The notes under the pieces were generated by a model. That model was given only the letters and a program-made list of their open reading frames with translations, was not told where the DNA came from and made no database searches. Shown in pieces: positions 27,099 to 43,481 of a stretch of DNA of 49,311 bases (position 1 is the first letter of the stretch; each line of letters starts with the position of its first letter). The position numbers and the translations under genes were made by a program. Source of the DNA: Patescibacteria group bacterium (GTDB lineage: Bacteria > Patescibacteriota > Minisyncoccia > UBA6257 > GWB1-50-10); contig JBBTSG010000006.1 in the NCBI GenBank assembly GCA_038064775.1, positions 32,168-81,478 of the forward strand, written 5' to 3'.

Positions 27099-28523
27099 TT
27101 AATTCTGATAAGTATTTTCTTTAAGCTTGTAAGTGGCTAGGGCGAGGACTAAAAACAAATTTATATAAATTGGTAGAACGTCAAAAAGCACTATTCCCTG
27201 CACCAAATAAGCTATCAAAACCGCGAAGAGCAAAGCGAGCTCTGAAGATAAATATTTTTGGTTAGTTAATTCTTTTTCATTGTGATTATTATTCTTTTTC
27301 AGTTGATTATTTTCTCTAAGATTGGTTTTTGTTTTTTTATAGAGTTGGATGAAGAAGATGGTGAAGATACTTAAGAAGCTTAAGAAACCGAAAGCGCCTG
27401 TTTCCACCAGATAATCAAAGTAAATACTGTGAGCACGATCAAACCAAGCGCCAAATCCCTGACTCGGCGTAAAATAGGCGGTATTGAAACGCCGATCAAA
27501 AACCTGAATAAAATTTTCTGGTCCCCAACCGAAAATTGGTCGCGCCTTAAATCCGTCCCAAGCAATTTGCCACATAAGAGCCCGAGTTTTAAATGTGTTC
27601 GCGTCTAAAGAAATGGTAAAAATGCGCGAAGCGGGAAGAGATTTCACAAACGGCGTATCTTGGAATTTTATGAACAAACCTACAACAAGAACAAAAAGAG
27701 TTACCCCAACCAAAAGCCGCTTACGCCAAGCTTGATGAACATAGATGAAGTAACCGAGAAATGCGACAATAGCTACGACGAAACCGAGAAAAGCGCCGCG
27801 GGTCGCAGCAAGATAAAGAACGGCTAAGAAAATTGCGCCAAGACCTGCAAGCGCAAAATTTTCAAAAGACAATTTTTTCTTGCTTCTATTACCAATAAAA
27901 AGCATTGCTAAGTAAAAAAGTATGAAAATGGCATAAGCACCAACATAAGATGAATTTCCAATCGAACCATCGAACCGAAAACCGGGCTGGCTAAATGACG
28001 GTCCGATAAAGTCCTTAAAAGACTGGAAAAACGAGCCGTTTGCCGCCTGATCTATATATTTTAATCCTGCTCCCGCGCCATACGCTGTCATTAGCAAACC
28101 AGTAATAATGGATGACCAAAAAATTTTCCGCCAATCCTTATCGTCGTGGAAAAGCATAATTAAGAGCCAAAAGAAAATTAATAGATGGAGTAATTGTAAA
28201 CCTCCCTCGCCGCGCTCAAAATTAGACCAAAAAGAAAATGACGGATCAACGCCAAAAAGAGAAGCTAAAATAACCGCTAAGACGAAAATCGAAACCGCGA
28301 TTGCAAGCGGCGACTTCAAAAGTTTAATAAATTTTTTCTCATAAATCTCCGCCTCTGGTGAAAGTACAAGACCGAGAAGAAAAGATATGAGCGCAAGATC
28401 AACAGTTGTCCGAAACCAGGTGTACTTACCGACAATAAAAGGAAAAAGCGTGGAAACGGTAACAACCGCAACTGCTAAAACAGAAATAATTAGAAAAAAT
28501 TTTGCCGTCTTAAAATAAGCCAT
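27099..28523 (-). CDS. O-antigen ligase/O-oligosaccharyltransferase family (Wzy_C) membrane protein
   Basis: About 12 TM helices, SFWSNFERGEG, GSIGNSSY, TRGAFLG, R..MW..AW, FGWGPENF, DRAHSIYFD. Confidence 0.88.
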   Translation of the reverse strand: MAYFKTAKFFLIISVLAVAVVTVSTLFPFIVGKYTWFRTTVDLALISFLLGLVLSPEAEIYEKKFIKLLKSPLAIAVSIFVLAVILASLFGVDPSFSFWSNFERGEGGLQLLHLLIFFWLLIMLFHDDKDWRKIFWSSIITGLLMTAYGAGAGLKYIDQAANGSFFQSFKDFIGPSFSQPGFRFDGSIGNSSYVGAYAIFILFYLAMLFIGNRSKKKLSFENFALAGLGAIFLAVLYLAATRGAFLGFVVAIVAFLGYFIYVHQAWRKRLLVGVTLFVLVVGLFIKFQDTPFVKSLPASRIFTISLDANTFKTRALMWQIAWDGFKARPIFGWGPENFIQVFDRRFNTAYFTPSQGFGAWFDRAHSIYFDYLVETGAFGFLSFLSIFTIFFIQLYKKTKTNLRENNQLKKNNNHNEKELTNQKYLSSELALLFAVLIAYLVQGIVLFDVLPIYINLFLVLALATYKLKENTYQN

Positions 28524-28581: not shown

Positions 28582-28610
28582 CAAAAAGACCCCTTCTCGG
28601 GGTCTTTTTG
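28582..28610 (-). terminator. Strong intrinsic terminator of the S-layer-like gene
   Basis: CAAAAAGACCCC-N5-GGGGTCTTTTTG. Confidence 0.9.
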
Positions 28611-28654: not shown

Positions 28655-31600
28655 TTAGCTACTCGACAAGGTCGTCACCTCAACCGACGGCATTATTCCA
28701 GGAATAACACCATCAATATAGAGACCAGTGGGTACGCTTGCAGAGTTTGTCGGGTTAGACGGGTAACCATAGAGATCACTACCTTTTACGTAGTAAAGAA
28801 GGTTGCCGATCGTCTGAATAGAGAACTTGAAGGTGTTGCCGTTATCCGCCGCAACGTTCGTCTTGATAATCAAGTATCTTGAAGAACCTCCAAGAATCGT
28901 TCGATTTGCTTCAGATGCAGAAATTGTGTATCCGAAAGGAACGCTTGAAGAACCAAGGGAGGTCGCCCATGTAGAAGTGCTGTAGGTGATATCAGCGCTT
29001 GAATTAGACATCTGGGAAGCATACAGCGTGTAAGCGCTAGATGTTGCCGTTGTCGTACCAGCGCCACTATTGTAGAAGGTCATACCCGTAGTGGAAGTTG
29101 AAAGATAAATCGGGGTTGCGCCGTTATTCGTAATCTTAAATGTCGCAACTGTCTGACCAGATGTTAAACCAATTATCTTTGTTGCCACCGTTGGCGAAAC
29201 TCCTGTAACAACAACACTCTGCGGTACAACGAATGAATAGCCGGTAGAAACAACCGTGCTAGCACCGGTACTGATTCCAGGTTGACCTGTCACCGTACCA
29301 GTCGTAAGTCCACTCACTGAACCCTTTACGGTCACATGAGTGCTTGAAGCAATAACGAACGCGAAGCTATTACCAAGGTCATCTATCGTGCCGACCCCAA
29401 CATCAGCTTTCACGTAAATCGTCGTGCCACTAACTGGCACCGGCGCAGTCAAAATATTATCTGACGTACCACCGACGGATGGGAAAGTAACAACGCATTC
29501 ACCGGCAATACAAGTATCAAACTGTCCTTTTGTTAATCCTGCTGGTACAAGATCGCCAGAAAGCGTGATATTCCTTAGAGTCGTCGTTGTTAAACCAGTT
29601 GAACCGGAACTTGTCGCTGTAAGCTTCAAGGAAGTAATTTTTTGCGTTTCATTAGCTGAACTCAATCTAACCGCAAACCACGTTCCTTGAGTTGCGCCAA
29701 CCGAAACCGTTTGGTTATTACTTGGTGTAGCGCCTGCGCCAGTTACGAGGTTCATATTAAGCGAACCGGAAGTAACTATAGTTTGCGCCTGACCACTACC
29801 GGCGAAACTAATATCCGTACCGTTCGTCAAACTATTACCTGTTGTCACGCCAACGGCGGTTATAGCCGATGTTGACGAAGCAACATTGAAAGTGTGTGTG
29901 ACGTTAGCGGATGTGGATGAAGCAACATTAGCCACTAAGTAAAGAGTGATTGGTGTTGCGCGGTTGACCACAATCGGCGATGAGAAATTGAAGTTTGTGG
30001 TAGCGCCGTTTGTCGCTGTTGAAGCGGTTGTTGAAAGAACTGTACCGCCACTCACTGGGTTACCTTTGTACATCACAAGACTAGTAATTCCGGTGTAATT
30101 GGAGTCACTGCTTGAATCTGATACTTTAACGGTCGTCACATTCACGTCTTCACCGCCCGCCGAAGAATTCAAAGTAATAGTGGCGAAAACATAATCGTTC
30201 GTGCCCACCACTACTGATTGGCCGGCAAGTGGCAATGATGCAAGTGTTGTCACCGTAAGAGCGGCTGCTTTAACTGAAAGCGCGAGGCCATCAGTCGCCG
30301 CCACAGTCGGATCAACGAGGTCATTTGTTACTAAACGTTTGGCTTGAATAATATCAAAGGACTTCACTTGATAACTATCAACCGCTGTCGCGGTCGAAGG
30401 AATCGAAGTTTCAACCGTTATAAAGTTATCCACGCCTTGAGTGGCAACCGGATAACTCGACAAGGTAAAGGTAGCTGCCGTAATCGGCGAAACATTGGAA
30501 CCGCCAGTGCTGTAGACAATCGCGCCGTTAAACTTCACATAAACCGTGCCGGTTAATGTTTTAGCGGCTGCAGTCGAAGTCGCAATGTAGAAACTAACCT
30601 GCCGCACTTCCATGTTCTCGCCACTCGGCCTAAAGTTGTATTTCGCTAAGAGAACATTGTTCGCGGAAGGAGTAACCGCCGCGCTTGGCGAATCAATTGT
30701 TCGCGTCAAAGTCGCCGTGCCGGTACCAATCGTCTGGATGTTGAAACCATTACCGATCGGGAACGCGGAGTCATTCGTCGCCGCCGCGCCCGGAATAACG
30801 GAGACACCGGTCGTCACGCCCATCAGATTAATATCGTAGTTGTTGTAAACCACAAGGTTAATTGTTTTTGTCGTGCCGCCGATAAGCTTCGCTTTTACGG
30901 TGAAATTTTTCGTTAACCCCTTATCAATGAAGTAAGCGGGTGTAATCGTAAAGTTTACATACTGGCCCATTGGCTGAGCAGTCGCCAAAATATTACCGGA
31001 TTGATCAAGTAACTGAACATCCGCGTAATCGCCTGCTCCCGCGTTGCCATAGTTATATAAGGTCAAAGCGGAAAAGTTTACTCCTTCATTAGAAGAGGTT
31101 TCTCGAACCTGGAATTTTGTAATTTCCTGTTGGCTCACTGGATCAACACTTAAAGAGCTTGAACCGGTTGAGGTCAAAACATCTAAAGTAGTGGAAGCTA
31201 ACGCGCTCGCGCCACTTACGATGTTCATTCCATTACCAACAATCGGGTAACTACCACCAATTGAAGTTGTGTCAGCCATAATTGCCGACGCCGAATTAAT
31301 GTTAAACGCAACCGTGCCGGTAATAGAACCTGTCACAAGGTTGAATCGCACTGTAAACGAAGTTGACTGTCCTGCCGCAACCATAATCGGGCTGCTTGGG
31401 AAAGTAATACCGATTGTGTTATCAGCGTTAATAGAAGTTATAACATTGCCGTGCCGCACACCCATGGCGTCAATAACGTCAACACCATTAAGAGATGTGT
31501 TCGCGACAAAGCCACTCTTCTGCAAAGTAACGCCTGTCACATTCACTGCTTTAGAACCAGCCGTCAAGTTAACCTTTAAAGCTGGATTGAAAGCTGTTCC

Positions 31601-32113
31601 TGAACCGATTGTTCTTGCCGCTGGCGTATCAACCGCCAAAGAAGCAACTAAATCAGTACCGGAAGGCACAATTACGACTGGCGGAATACCACCAGTACCT
31701 CCTGTTGCTGTACCCACAAAAGCCGCGCGGGTTTTCGGACCGAAGTAACCGACGGAAGGAGTAACTCCCTTCGCCGCCTGCCAAGCCGCCAAAGCCGCCT
31801 TAGTCAAAGAACCAAAGAAGGCTGTCGGGGCCGCGACCTTCAAATAACCGCCGCTAATCAAGGTTTGCTGCAAAGCCGTCACATCTGCTCCTTTGCTACC
31901 CACGGTGAGGTCGCGAGTAAACGTGTAAGAAGATGCTGGGGTGCCGCTGTTACCTTGCAAAGCTGCTATTTGCTGTTGAAGAGCTTGAATTTGCGCGAGC
32001 AAAGCGTTGATATCAACGGATTGAGCGCTTACTGGAACTACTGAACCAGCCAACCAAACCATCGTTGTGATGGAAAGACCGACTGATAAAATTTTACTAG
32101 TTAATTTACTCAT
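28655..32113 (-). CDS. Large secreted S/T/G-rich surface (S-layer-like) protein with N-terminal peptidoglycan-binding domain
   Basis: Signal peptide, LLAQIQALQQQIAALQG coil, FTRDLTVGSKGADVTALQ...GYFGPKT PG_binding_1 motif, beta-rich repeats, strong terminator. Confidence 0.85.
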   Translation of the reverse strand: MSKLTSKILSVGLSITTMVWLAGSVVPVSAQSVDINALLAQIQALQQQIAALQGNSGTPASSYTFTRDLTVGSKGADVTALQQTLISGGYLKVAAPTAFFGSLTKAALAAWQAAKGVTPSVGYFGPKTRAAFVGTATGGTGGIPPVVIVPSGTDLVASLAVDTPAARTIGSGTAFNPALKVNLTAGSKAVNVTGVTLQKSGFVANTSLNGVDVIDAMGVRHGNVITSINADNTIGITFPSSPIMVAAGQSTSFTVRFNLVTGSITGTVAFNINSASAIMADTTSIGGSYPIVGNGMNIVSGASALASTTLDVLTSTGSSSLSVDPVSQQEITKFQVRETSSNEGVNFSALTLYNYGNAGAGDYADVQLLDQSGNILATAQPMGQYVNFTITPAYFIDKGLTKNFTVKAKLIGGTTKTINLVVYNNYDINLMGVTTGVSVIPGAAATNDSAFPIGNGFNIQTIGTGTATLTRTIDSPSAAVTPSANNVLLAKYNFRPSGENMEVRQVSFYIATSTAAAKTLTGTVYVKFNGAIVYSTGGSNVSPITAATFTLSSYPVATQGVDNFITVETSIPSTATAVDSYQVKSFDIIQAKRLVTNDLVDPTVAATDGLALSVKAAALTVTTLASLPLAGQSVVVGTNDYVFATITLNSSAGGEDVNVTTVKVSDSSSDSNYTGITSLVMYKGNPVSGGTVLSTTASTATNGATTNFNFSSPIVVNRATPITLYLVANVASSTSANVTHTFNVASSTSAITAVGVTTGNSLTNGTDISFAGSGQAQTIVTSGSLNMNLVTGAGATPSNNQTVSVGATQGTWFAVRLSSANETQKITSLKLTATSSGSTGLTTTTLRNITLSGDLVPAGLTKGQFDTCIAGECVVTFPSVGGTSDNILTAPVPVSGTTIYVKADVGVGTIDDLGNSFAFVIASSTHVTVKGSVSGLTTGTVTGQPGISTGASTVVSTGYSFVVPQSVVVTGVSPTVATKIIGLTSGQTVATFKITNNGATPIYLSTSTTGMTFYNSGAGTTTATSSAYTLYASQMSNSSADITYSTSTWATSLGSSSVPFGYTISASEANRTILGGSSRYLIIKTNVAADNGNTFKFSIQTIGNLLYYVKGSDLYGYPSNPTNSASVPTGLYIDGVIPGIMPSVEVTTLSSS

Positions 32114-32460
32114 TTTTTGTAATTTTAGAATTTTCTTAAATTTATCGACCTAAATTATTTATCCTTCGATTTCACTCAGAATAATACTGAGCTTGCCGAA
32201 GTATTAAATTTGGTCGCCGACCTTTGATTTTGTCTGGAACGTCTTCCGTCGCTCTCGACTTGCCGCTAATCTAGTGAGGATTATTTAGCAGAAGAGCTAA
32301 ACGAAAAACGGTTGGTAATAATTGGACGTATAAACAAAATCTCGCTAGAGCGAGATAAAACTACTTAAATCGTGGAGAACAAACAGACGCTTGCCGATAA
32401 TTCGGCCGACGTCGCTTGTTTCTTTTGATTAAAGTAGCTTAGCCTCACTCTAAGCTAGAA
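32114..32460 (-). ncRNA. Putative long structured 5' leader of the S-layer-like gene
   Basis: TATAAT at 32464-32469 and multiple stems (TAGCTTAG/CTAAGCTA, CTACTT/AAGTAG, GCCGA/TCGGC, ATCTCGC/GCGAGAT, TTTAGC/GCTAAA). Confidence 0.5.
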
Positions 32461-32573
32461 ATCATTATACAAGCTAGAAAAGTGCTTGAAAGCCCCGCTG
32501 TTGATAAACTGCGCTTTCCTTAGGGTTTCAATAGATATAACGAATAATTGCCCTTGAAGTTACGCTTTTTAGT

Positions 32574-33344
32574 TTAAACCGTCCAAGAAGAAAAAGCGAA
32601 TATAATAACCATTAAAATCGTAAAAAAAGCCGCTTCTTCAAAAACTAGGGTCCGGTTCAATAAACCGCGCTCCCGGACGATAAAAAGATCGCGGCTTATG
32701 GCGGTAAAAAGCGTAAGTAGCGCGGCGGAGTTTAAAAAACCTAGTGGCAAAAAAGCAATAAACCAGCCAACTTGAAAAACAAGAAAAGCTAACGCGTAAC
32801 TCCCCCCAAGAATTATTTTTTTTGACAAGAAACCGAAAAAAACGAAATCCTCGCGGAAAGAAAGACCGATTAAAAGCATTAGGCCAACGGCAAAGAAAAA
32901 GTTTTGAGGCAACAGGTAATAAAAAATATAAGCAGTGATTACTAGCAGGGTTTTAAAAATATTAAAAACCAAAAAACGGTTGTTGAAAAATCTTTGATTC
33001 AAACCCAACCAAAGAAAAAGAAGACCGCTCCAAAAAATAACGATAAACGGGGAATTAATAAAAAAAGTAAAAAAGTTCCAAACACCTTCGAACTTATAAA
33101 GATTATTCAGCTCGAGAAAAACCAAGCTTAAAAAAAATAAAAACCAGAAAGAAAAACTAATACCTTCACTACTGCCTTTCTCGGAAAAATAAATCAGGAT
33201 AGCAACAAGAAAAAATAAAAAGACCGGCCAAAAACCGAAACCGACTTGCGTTAACCAAAAAAGAATAATTCCGTAGAAAAAAGCTTTAAACAGTAACTTC
33301 CACGTTATTTGTTTGGTTAAGAGAAATGTTAACTTTTTTACCAT
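32574..33344 (-). CDS. Hypothetical multi-pass membrane protein
   Basis: 256 aa, almost entirely hydrophobic (F/L-rich), about 8 TM segments. Confidence 0.7.
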
Positions 33345-43406: not shown

Positions 43407-43481
43407 ATAATTTTTATTTTATTATGGATTGACCTTTATATTTACTTACTTAAGTATAACGCATTCAAACACGCAATGTTT

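Follow-up and report, generated by a model that had tools for sequence, protein, structure and literature searches.

What does the long intergenic region in front of a predicted surface-layer (S-layer) gene do in a bacterium with a tiny genome? The region in question lies in a stretch of 49,311 nucleotides, referred to below as the window, of contig JBBTSG010000006.1 from a Patescibacteria group bacterium (GenBank assembly GCA_038064775.1) with a genome of 605 kb and 40% GC. The Patescibacteria, or Candidate Phyla Radiation, are mostly uncultured organisms with tiny genomes and few recognizable regulators, and to our knowledge almost nothing has been learned about the control of gene expression in them. 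On the minus strand of the window, to which all leader coordinates refer, the S-layer gene is separated from the preceding open reading frame (ORF) by a gap of 460 bp. A preliminary description, made from the letters of the sequence, had seen in this gap a highly structured leader and proposed it as a candidate new cis-regulatory RNA. With high confidence, we identify the region as a structured leader RNA that is conserved and linked in cis to the gene. Its function is proposed less firmly: we regard it as rather probable that the leader is a transcription attenuator based on RNA structure and joined to a long-range contact that organizes the mRNA.

The protein encoded by the regulated gene, 1152 amino acids in length, contains a signal peptide, a coiled coil, and a PG_binding_1 domain. 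S-layer proteins were predicted in Patescibacteria, including Paceibacterales, in a 2024 preprint, the text of which names neither an untranslated region nor a promoter (bioRxiv 10.1101/2024.05.28.596244). The 1152-amino-acid product is treated here as a predicted S-layer protein.

Conservation of the leader

Positions 32457-32114, about 345 nt, are assigned to the 5' leader of the S-layer mRNA. The 363-nt leader fold has an energy of -111.4 kcal/mol, whereas dinucleotide shuffles give -74.1 +/- 5.4 (z = -6.86), none of 100 folding as well, so that the structure goes well past chance. All elements named in the preliminary description were recovered at the positions given there (Table 1): the TATAAT box, the 5' hairpin UAGCUUAG-AGUGAGG-CUAAGCUA, here called P1, the nested multistem (P2), the terminator-like hairpin AUCUCGC-UCUA-GCGAGAU with its UUUGUUU tract (T), which is also called by a terminator scan, and, about 170 nt downstream of the P1 loop, the exact complement of that loop, CCUCACU, which we place in the apical loop of a hairpin K. 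The main elements recur in relatives, and the order of parts common to the leaders is the -10 box, P1, P2, T, an ACCAACC-like word with a pyrimidine tract, K, GGUCGA-type motifs, and the ATG. The last of the stems described earlier, UUUAGC/GCUAAA, is present in the window (32301-32296 with 32289-32284) but was rejected as a core element, having no counterpart in the printed leaders of relatives. It also competes with the recurrent stem of K.

In the whole window, no covariance model of Rfam 15 matched at the gathering thresholds, and an E-value scan of positions 31900-32800 yielded only chance-level matches to miRNA-precursor hairpins, far below the cut-offs. BLAST of the gap against 60 relatives gave short collinear blocks, with 100%-identical matches to the 5' hairpin in several genera. 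The P1 22-mer is present in a single copy in its own genome. With up to two mismatches allowed, 38 of the 96 family genomes, from 25 of 43 genera, each contain a single copy of the 19-nt P1 core, whereas a reversed control pattern matched twice. A covariance model of the 5' domain (P1 and T), built from 27 leaders and called R1, matches 65 of the 96 family genomes and 36 of the 43 genera, almost always once per genome. In nine other families of the order it matches 7/7, 6/7, 6/7, 4/5, 4/7, 3/4, 2/5, 1/2, and 1/6 genomes, respectively, and in 150 other genomes sampled across the class, which double as a specificity control, it gave one weak match. The genomes compared within the order measure 0.5-1.4 Mb.

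The RNA is linked to one gene. Wherever enough sequence follows in the family loci, the first long ORF after the hairpin starts 226-537 nt downstream and is a homolog of the surface protein, recognizable by a MSKLT..-type signal peptide followed by LQAQIAALLAQIQ; in all 11 order-level loci read, the same gene lies 268-588 nt downstream. A whole-protein search for related loci produced six distant loci, one of which (L059) has the leader, and among named organisms the nearest relatives found belong to the Patescibacteria, for example 'Candidatus Sungiibacteriota'. The proposal of a new cis-regulatory RNA is upheld by the lack of Rfam matches together with the conservation in front of an orthologous surface-protein gene across one order. 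As judged by these searches, the leader RNA family is undescribed, with no match in Rfam 15, and is confined to that order of Patescibacteria. What is new here is the covarying architecture of P1, T, K, and the alternative helix described next, and the taxonomic range of the leader.

Covariation of P1, T, and an alternative helix

Covariation was analyzed in gap-free alignments of 47 columns, each row of which combines the P1 segment and the 5' segment of T from one leader; P2 was removed, and the rows are constructs rather than contiguous sequence. For the alternative helix (AT), regular expressions matching the conserved cores served as alignment anchors.

In relatives, P1 has 6-8 bp and its stem drifts (GCUUAG/CUAAGC, GUUUGG/CCAAAC, GUUCAG/CUGAAC, GACAGG/CCUUGUC), while the loop NGUGAGG, usually of 7 nt (range 6-8 nt), retains GUGAGG in all 64 distinct leaders. 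Pairing is seen in 92.4% of the P1 cells, compared with 11-57% when the partner is slid, and the double-change cells number 80, against 24 +/- 5 in shuffles (0 of 500 shuffles equal). The stem holds about 50 G.U cells. These would be A.C mismatches on the opposite strand, and hence the structure is an RNA of the minus strand. The same cells speak to the suggestion that P1, an inverted repeat overlapping the predicted +1, is a palindromic repressor site in DNA: they keep a pairing that is a mismatch on DNA and on the opposite strand. Moreover, the arms drift while the asymmetric 7-nt center stays fixed, and this center pairs with two other RNA segments. A DNA operator is therefore disfavored and, in our estimate, extremely improbable.

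P2 varies in sequence and in length (29 to 243 nt, median 82 nt), with its fold kept: the spacer between P1 and T has a median dG of -28.6 and a median z of -4.4 in the 64 leaders, and z is below -2 in 91% of them. At its base, P2 shares three bases with the 3' arm of P1. Short phased repeats, such as CGAAT/ATTCG words and TTAGG runs, often make up P2 in relatives (e.g., L011, L005, L032, L059, and L127).

The hairpin T usually reads (C/U)CUCGCUC-loop-GAGCGAG in relatives and is followed by 5-8 U. A first pass found a hairpin with a U-run at a similar position in 26 of 29 leaders, and the folding energy of T lies between -7 and -17 kcal/mol in 33 leaders. Its stem covaries in single-sequence folds (G-C to A-U, U-A to C-G). 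P1 and T are, in other words, both conserved and covarying in relatives.

In addition, the 5' arm and loop of P1 (CUUAG-N-GUGAGG) are complementary to the 5' arm and loop of T ((C/U)CUCGC-N'-CUAAG), and this complementarity, the helix AT, is also supported by covariation on the same measures. Over its 12 columns 85.9% of cells are paired, compared with 32-55% for slid partners, and double changes fill 46 cells, compared with 24.5 +/- 3.8 in shuffles (0 of 500 equal). Most of the inner eight pairs form in more than 90% of cells, and the variable base of the loop is paired in 78%. This base N tracks N' (A-U 25, U-A 4, G-C 2, G.U 4), stem position 4 tracks its partner (A-U 20, G-C 12, G.U 3; permutation p about 1e-4), and so does position 1 (C-G 15, U-A 9); the per-position permutation p ranges from about 1e-4 to 4e-3. 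For instance, the P1 arm UUCAG goes with the T loop UUUGAA, and the P1 arm UUGG with CCAA.

Since P1, AT, and T share strands, they are mutually exclusive. Read from the sequence, this arrangement is the layout of a classical attenuator. The earlier suggestion of attenuation, made from the internal terminator-like stem and the distal pairing of the loop, is supported and extended by a covarying antiterminator helix; termination itself is predicted. Enforced-pair folding of the isolated 5' domain favored AT over P1 and T together in 49 of 64 leaders, with a median difference of 3.5 kcal/mol, and the two states lie within 3 kcal/mol in 21 leaders. For the 5' domain of the window the energies are -53.8 kcal/mol for AT and -44.5 kcal/mol for P1 with T, and the unconstrained fold of the whole window leader chooses AT.

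The leader could also have a purely protective and organizing role for a long-lived mRNA that is heavily translated. S-layer and ompA mRNAs are stabilized by long structured leaders with 5' hairpins, and P1 is located within a few bases of the predicted start site; here it would block RNases that depend on the 5' end, the conserved pairing of P1 with K would compact the leader, and T would be a structural element that never terminates. Such a stabilizer or scaffold leaves unexplained the U-run after T in nearly all relatives, as well as the covariation of the 5' strand and loop of T with the 5' strand of P1, and we think it unlikely.

Predicted promoter and unit of transcription

The extended P1 stem starts 6 nt after the -10 box, from which the start site is inferred to lie at about 32458-32456, a few bases before P1. 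In 37 of the 64 leaders the 38 nt upstream of P1 contain a -10-like hexamer (five or six of six positions matching), which is exact in 18. In an equal-sized segment downstream of T, such hexamers were found in 5 of 64 leaders and none was exact. A promoter scan reported no promoter on the minus strand. A second promoter after T was rejected on the zero count of exact boxes there and the empty scan.

These counts are relevant to another explanation, in which P1, P2, and T form a separate small RNA (sRNA) gene of about 125 nt, whose GUGAGG loop would target the K loop in trans, the S-layer mRNA having a promoter of its own. The unit does combine a promoter, hairpins, and a terminator with a seed-like loop complementary to a downstream target. 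However, -10 boxes are concentrated upstream of P1 and not after T, the U-run directly abuts the conserved ACCAACC word in several relatives, and the covarying AT helix would be left without a role. A separate sRNA thus seems very unlikely.

Upstream of the promoter, about 30 nt from the -10 box, lies a DnaA-box-like word, TTATCAACA, the membership of which in the element is uncertain. At the equivalent place, 15 of 39 relatives have the DnaA-box word TTATCCACA with at most one mismatch, 13 of them exactly, and DnaA or another factor may act here as a transcription regulator. In relatives (L005, L006, L008, L010, L016, and others) the word precedes the -35 element of the S-layer promoter by approximately 20-30 nt. 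The genome under study contains eight exact copies of the DnaA box, several of them just upstream of TTGACA...TATAAT promoters.

Predicted loop-loop contact between P1 and K

Of the 64 leaders, 45 have CCUCAC on the 3' side of T, with the loop consensus (GAU)CCUCAC(UA). The pairing of the P1 loop with a distal segment, noticed earlier in the window, is retained as complementarity in these leaders (about 70%) and covaries at its one variable position: the seventh pair is A-U in 16, G-C in 4, U-A in 4, and G.U in 2 leaders, with a mismatch in 9 (Watson-Crick permutation p = 4e-4). Two leaders with a G in the loop extend the complementarity to 9 bp (GGGUGAGGC with GCCUCACCC). In a few lineages the CCUCAC hairpin is located upstream of the terminator or is missing.

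The stem of K was judged from single-sequence folds alone. CCUCAC is exposed in an apical loop in 20 of 28 minimum-energy folds, the stems of which differ widely, and in 40 of 40 tested K regions at least five pairs enclose it (median 10, compared with 6.9 when the flanks are shuffled). The two loops share a conserved kissing complementarity of at least 6 nt, and a physical contact between them is predicted.

The invariance of GUGAGG above a drifting stem is typical of a recognition loop. An RNA-binding protein on the NGUGAGG or CCUCAC loop, similar to BglG/SacY, PyrR, or LoaP-type factors, could set the balance between P1, AT, and T, and this would use the same three-state architecture as an attenuator. 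The fixed loop is, however, also explained by its pairing with two RNA partners, the arm of T and the loop of K. No candidate protein was found, none having been searched for, and genomes of this size presumably encode few regulators. We consider protein-dependent control decidedly unlikely.

Proposed mechanism

In the attenuator that we favor, transcription would start a few bases upstream of P1, and P1 would fold first, displaying GUGAGG in its 7-nt loop. The 5' strand of T, (U/C)CUCGCNCU, would emerge after the variable P2, nucleate on the loop, and displace the 3' arm of P1 to form an AT helix of 9-12 bp, upon which the polymerase would read through. As AT is usually more stable in the isolated 5' domain, read-through and high expression would be the default, which would suit a very abundant coat protein. 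Were the P1 loop occupied or P1 locked, T would form and transcription would end at the U-tract after about 125 nt. The best candidate for the blocker is the K loop, CCUCAC(U), transcribed about 170 nt downstream; alternatively, K acting in trans or some protein could block.

In cis, after read-through, K would re-form P1 and anchor the 5' end to the leader body. The state with P1, T, and the P1-K kiss is expected to be the more stable one once K has been made, the kiss being a contact that the folding tool cannot score. With its 5'-terminal hairpin tied to the leader body, this state could also stabilize the mRNA, and P1 would serve both as an anti-antiterminator and as a 5' cap-like hairpin. 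The regulatory input could be the K loop in trans or a protein bound to the invariant loop, or there could be nothing beyond folding kinetics.

A number of observations weigh against the attenuator. The U-tract of the window, UUUUGUUU (including the U closing the stem), is weaker than that of most relatives, and the outer four pairs of AT are formed in just 58-75% of cells. The compared genomes are related, which overstates significance derived from shuffles. K is absent from about 30% of leaders; its stem has a median energy z of -1.5, a modest support due to the compositionally complementary flanks, and RNAalifold returned no consensus pairs for the K region, where the stems are out of register in the sequence alignment. 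No sensor is recognizable, in that neither a conserved leader peptide (read by eye) nor a known aptamer (Rfam scans) was found, and a highly expressed gene has no obvious need for a terminator. Finally, the start site, actual termination, the sense in which control acts, and the kind of signal are all inferred.

In a special case of this attenuator no protein would be needed. The CCUCAC loops of finished mRNAs would kiss the nascent GUGAGG loop in trans, block the toehold of AT, and stop transcription at T, so that the mRNA titrates itself. Self-titration of this kind is improbable in our view, and much less probable than the attenuator as such. If it were true, contact between RNAs would by itself suffice to set the level of the cell's most abundant mRNA, and this in a lineage that has hardly any regulators.

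Relation to known leaders and regulatory RNAs

The trp and pyr attenuators, the ribonucleic antiterminator targets of the bgl and sac systems, and riboswitch platforms likewise possess three exclusive helices in a 5' leader. In attenuator leaders, too, a GC-rich hairpin with a U-tract precedes the ORF and an alternative pairing sequesters the 5' strand of the terminator. Unlike them, the present leader has no recognizable module for a leader peptide or for binding a tRNA, a protein, or a ligand. Further, the putative anti-antiterminator is here the very 5' hairpin, the loop of which would give the antiterminator its toehold; about 70 nt past the terminator comes the K loop as a fourth partner; and there is no sequence relation to Rfam families.

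The leaders of other S-layer genes (slpA of Lactobacillus, vapA of Aeromonas, slpA of Thermus thermophilus) and the ompA stabilizer resemble this one, as far as general knowledge rather than alignment goes, in being long and structured and in preceding the gene of an abundant surface protein; their 5'-terminal hairpin would correspond to P1 at the predicted start site. We know of no conserved internal terminator or covarying alternative helix in these leaders. As in ColE1 RNA I/RNA II and fold-back of the hok/sok type, a 7-nt apical loop could nucleate pairing that spreads into the stem, and a contact would link the 5' region with an internal segment over a long range. In contrast to those systems, both partners are parts of one leader and are coupled to a terminator, without an antisense gene. 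The put sites of phage HK022 and the EAR element of Bacillus, the latter also in a cell-envelope polysaccharide operon, similarly place hairpins right after a promoter and before a terminator that has to be read through. They act on RNA polymerase without a helix that competes with the terminator, whereas this RNA has such a helix, and it covaries; it has no Rfam similarity to them.

Three further identities were rejected. A leader peptide starting at the GUG of the loop is not conserved, since its frames, read by eye, stop after 4 to 27 codons across leaders. 6S RNA, a rod of about 180 nt that has a conserved central bubble and is tied to no particular gene, is contradicted by the lack of an Rfam 6S match, by the variable mid-rod (P2, 29 to 243 nt), and by the constant position before the same gene; the last two points also speak against other stand-alone RNAs. 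ANTAR-type targets consist of two tandem hexaloop hairpins, the second of which overlaps the terminator, whereas here a single hairpin, with a loop usually of 7 nt, is found about 95 nt before the terminator.

Taken by its layout, the leader looks like an on/off switch for the main surface protein. An order-wide structured RNA in front of what is probably the most highly expressed gene provides a testable model of regulated or programmed read-through, the fully conserved 6-nt loop offers a handle for experiments, and the leader is a candidate family for RNA databases.

GGUCGA-type motifs and the translation start

In relatives, the leaders carry at least two (A/G)GUCG(A/G) motifs, set among A-rich sequence, as well as the word GUUCC(A/U)GAA. 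GGUCGA-type motifs are located at 32145-32150, 32217-32222, and 43430-43437 of the window. In the genome that contains the window, 12 genes have (A/G)GGUC(G/A)A or AAGUCGA starting 21-40 nt ahead of their ATG, compared with 2 for the reverse-complement control. Among the genes with a motif at -60 to -15, named from their N-termini, are those for HU, DnaK, a pilin-like protein, an RNA-recognition-motif protein, ribosomal protein L15, and several secreted proteins.

No Shine-Dalgarno site precedes the S-layer ATG, and GGAGG was found before the start of none of the 443 ORFs of the genome. In the 16S rRNA of six relatives (L052-L057), reading ...GGATCAATTAAA, there is no CCTCC after the conserved AAGTCGTAACAAGG block; the 16S gene of the genome itself is absent from the assembly. 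The 16S rRNA of this lineage thus appears to lack an anti-Shine-Dalgarno tail. For the same reasons, namely the absence of CCUCC from these six 16S sequences and of Shine-Dalgarno sites from the genes, we rejected a reading of the GAGG in the P1 loop as a STAB-SD element of the cry3A type, in which a Shine-Dalgarno-like word close to the 5' end pairs with the 3' tail of 16S rRNA, or as a mimic of the Shine-Dalgarno site.

These data suggest that the GGUCGA motifs, a separate module shared with other highly expressed genes, act as a signal for the expression of abundant proteins in a lineage that does without Shine-Dalgarno pairing. Their role is probably in translation or mRNA stability, and the motif is a candidate stand-in for the Shine-Dalgarno site. 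The leader, the missing anti-Shine-Dalgarno tail, and the shared motif together point to lineage-specific rules of expression.

Other features of the locus

The coordinates of the leader elements and of the flanking genes are collected in Table 1.

Table 1. Elements of the S-layer leader and adjacent genes (window positions)
Feature	Position	Strand	Basis
Upstream ORF, 256-aa membrane protein	33344-32574	-	Window ORFs
DnaA-box-like word TTATCAACA	32499..32507	-	Relatives
-10 box TATAAT of predicted leader promoter	32464..32469	-	Sequence; recurs in relatives
P1, 5'-terminal hairpin UAGCUUAG-AGUGAGG-CUAAGCUA, loop 32449-32443 with invariant GUGAGG	32435..32457	-	Single copy, covariation
P2, long nested hairpin (CUACUU.AAUC / GAUU.AAGUAG etc.)	32361..32437 (approximate)	-	Folding energies
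T, intrinsic-terminator-like hairpin AUCUCGC-UCUA-GCGAGAU (32356-32339) + UUUGUUU	32332..32356	-	Terminator scan, recurrence, covariation
AT 3' strand (T 5' arm + loop); partner 32453-32443 (P1 5' arm + loop)	32345..32355	-	Covariation
ACCAACC word directly 3' of terminator, conserved	32310..32316	-	Alignments of relatives
K, hairpin CUGCUAA...UUAGCGG (32291-32285 with 32269-32263), CCUCACU (32279-32273) in apical loop	32263..32291	-	Complementarity, folds
First GGUCGA-type motif (here AGUCGA), directly 3' of K	32255..32260	-	Alignments
Conserved word GUUCCAGA (GUUCC(A/U)GAA in most leaders)	32233..32240	-	Alignment
Second motif AAAGGUCGG; AAAGGUCG(A/G) block nearly invariant in relatives	32217..32225	-	Alignment
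REP-like hairpin insert UUCGGCAAGCUCAG...CUGAG...AUCGAAGG, outside conserved core	32163..32200	-	Copies elsewhere in genome
Third motif GGUCGA, 37 nt 5' of ATG	32145..32150	-	Sequence
Regulated gene, predicted S-layer protein, 1152 aa, secreted, PG_binding_1 domain	28655..32113	-	ORF + domain analysis

The S-layer gene is followed by a strong 12-bp terminator (28582-28610, minus strand), and the gene after it (27099-28523) encodes a Wzy_C membrane protein, similar to O-antigen ligases.

Between the second and third motifs the leader carries a hairpin resembling repetitive extragenic palindromic (REP) elements. Similar copies of this hairpin (UUCGRCAAGCUCAG...CUGAG...AUCGAAGG) are present in the same genome on contig C4 (at about 8.4 kb) and at C6:100518-100558. 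Both are located just upstream of a start codon, the C4 copy preceding the gene of a 991-aa secreted protein, and a related sequence precedes DnaK on C21. Copies of the REP-like hairpin are also found in the S-layer leaders of some relatives (L038, L112, and L114).

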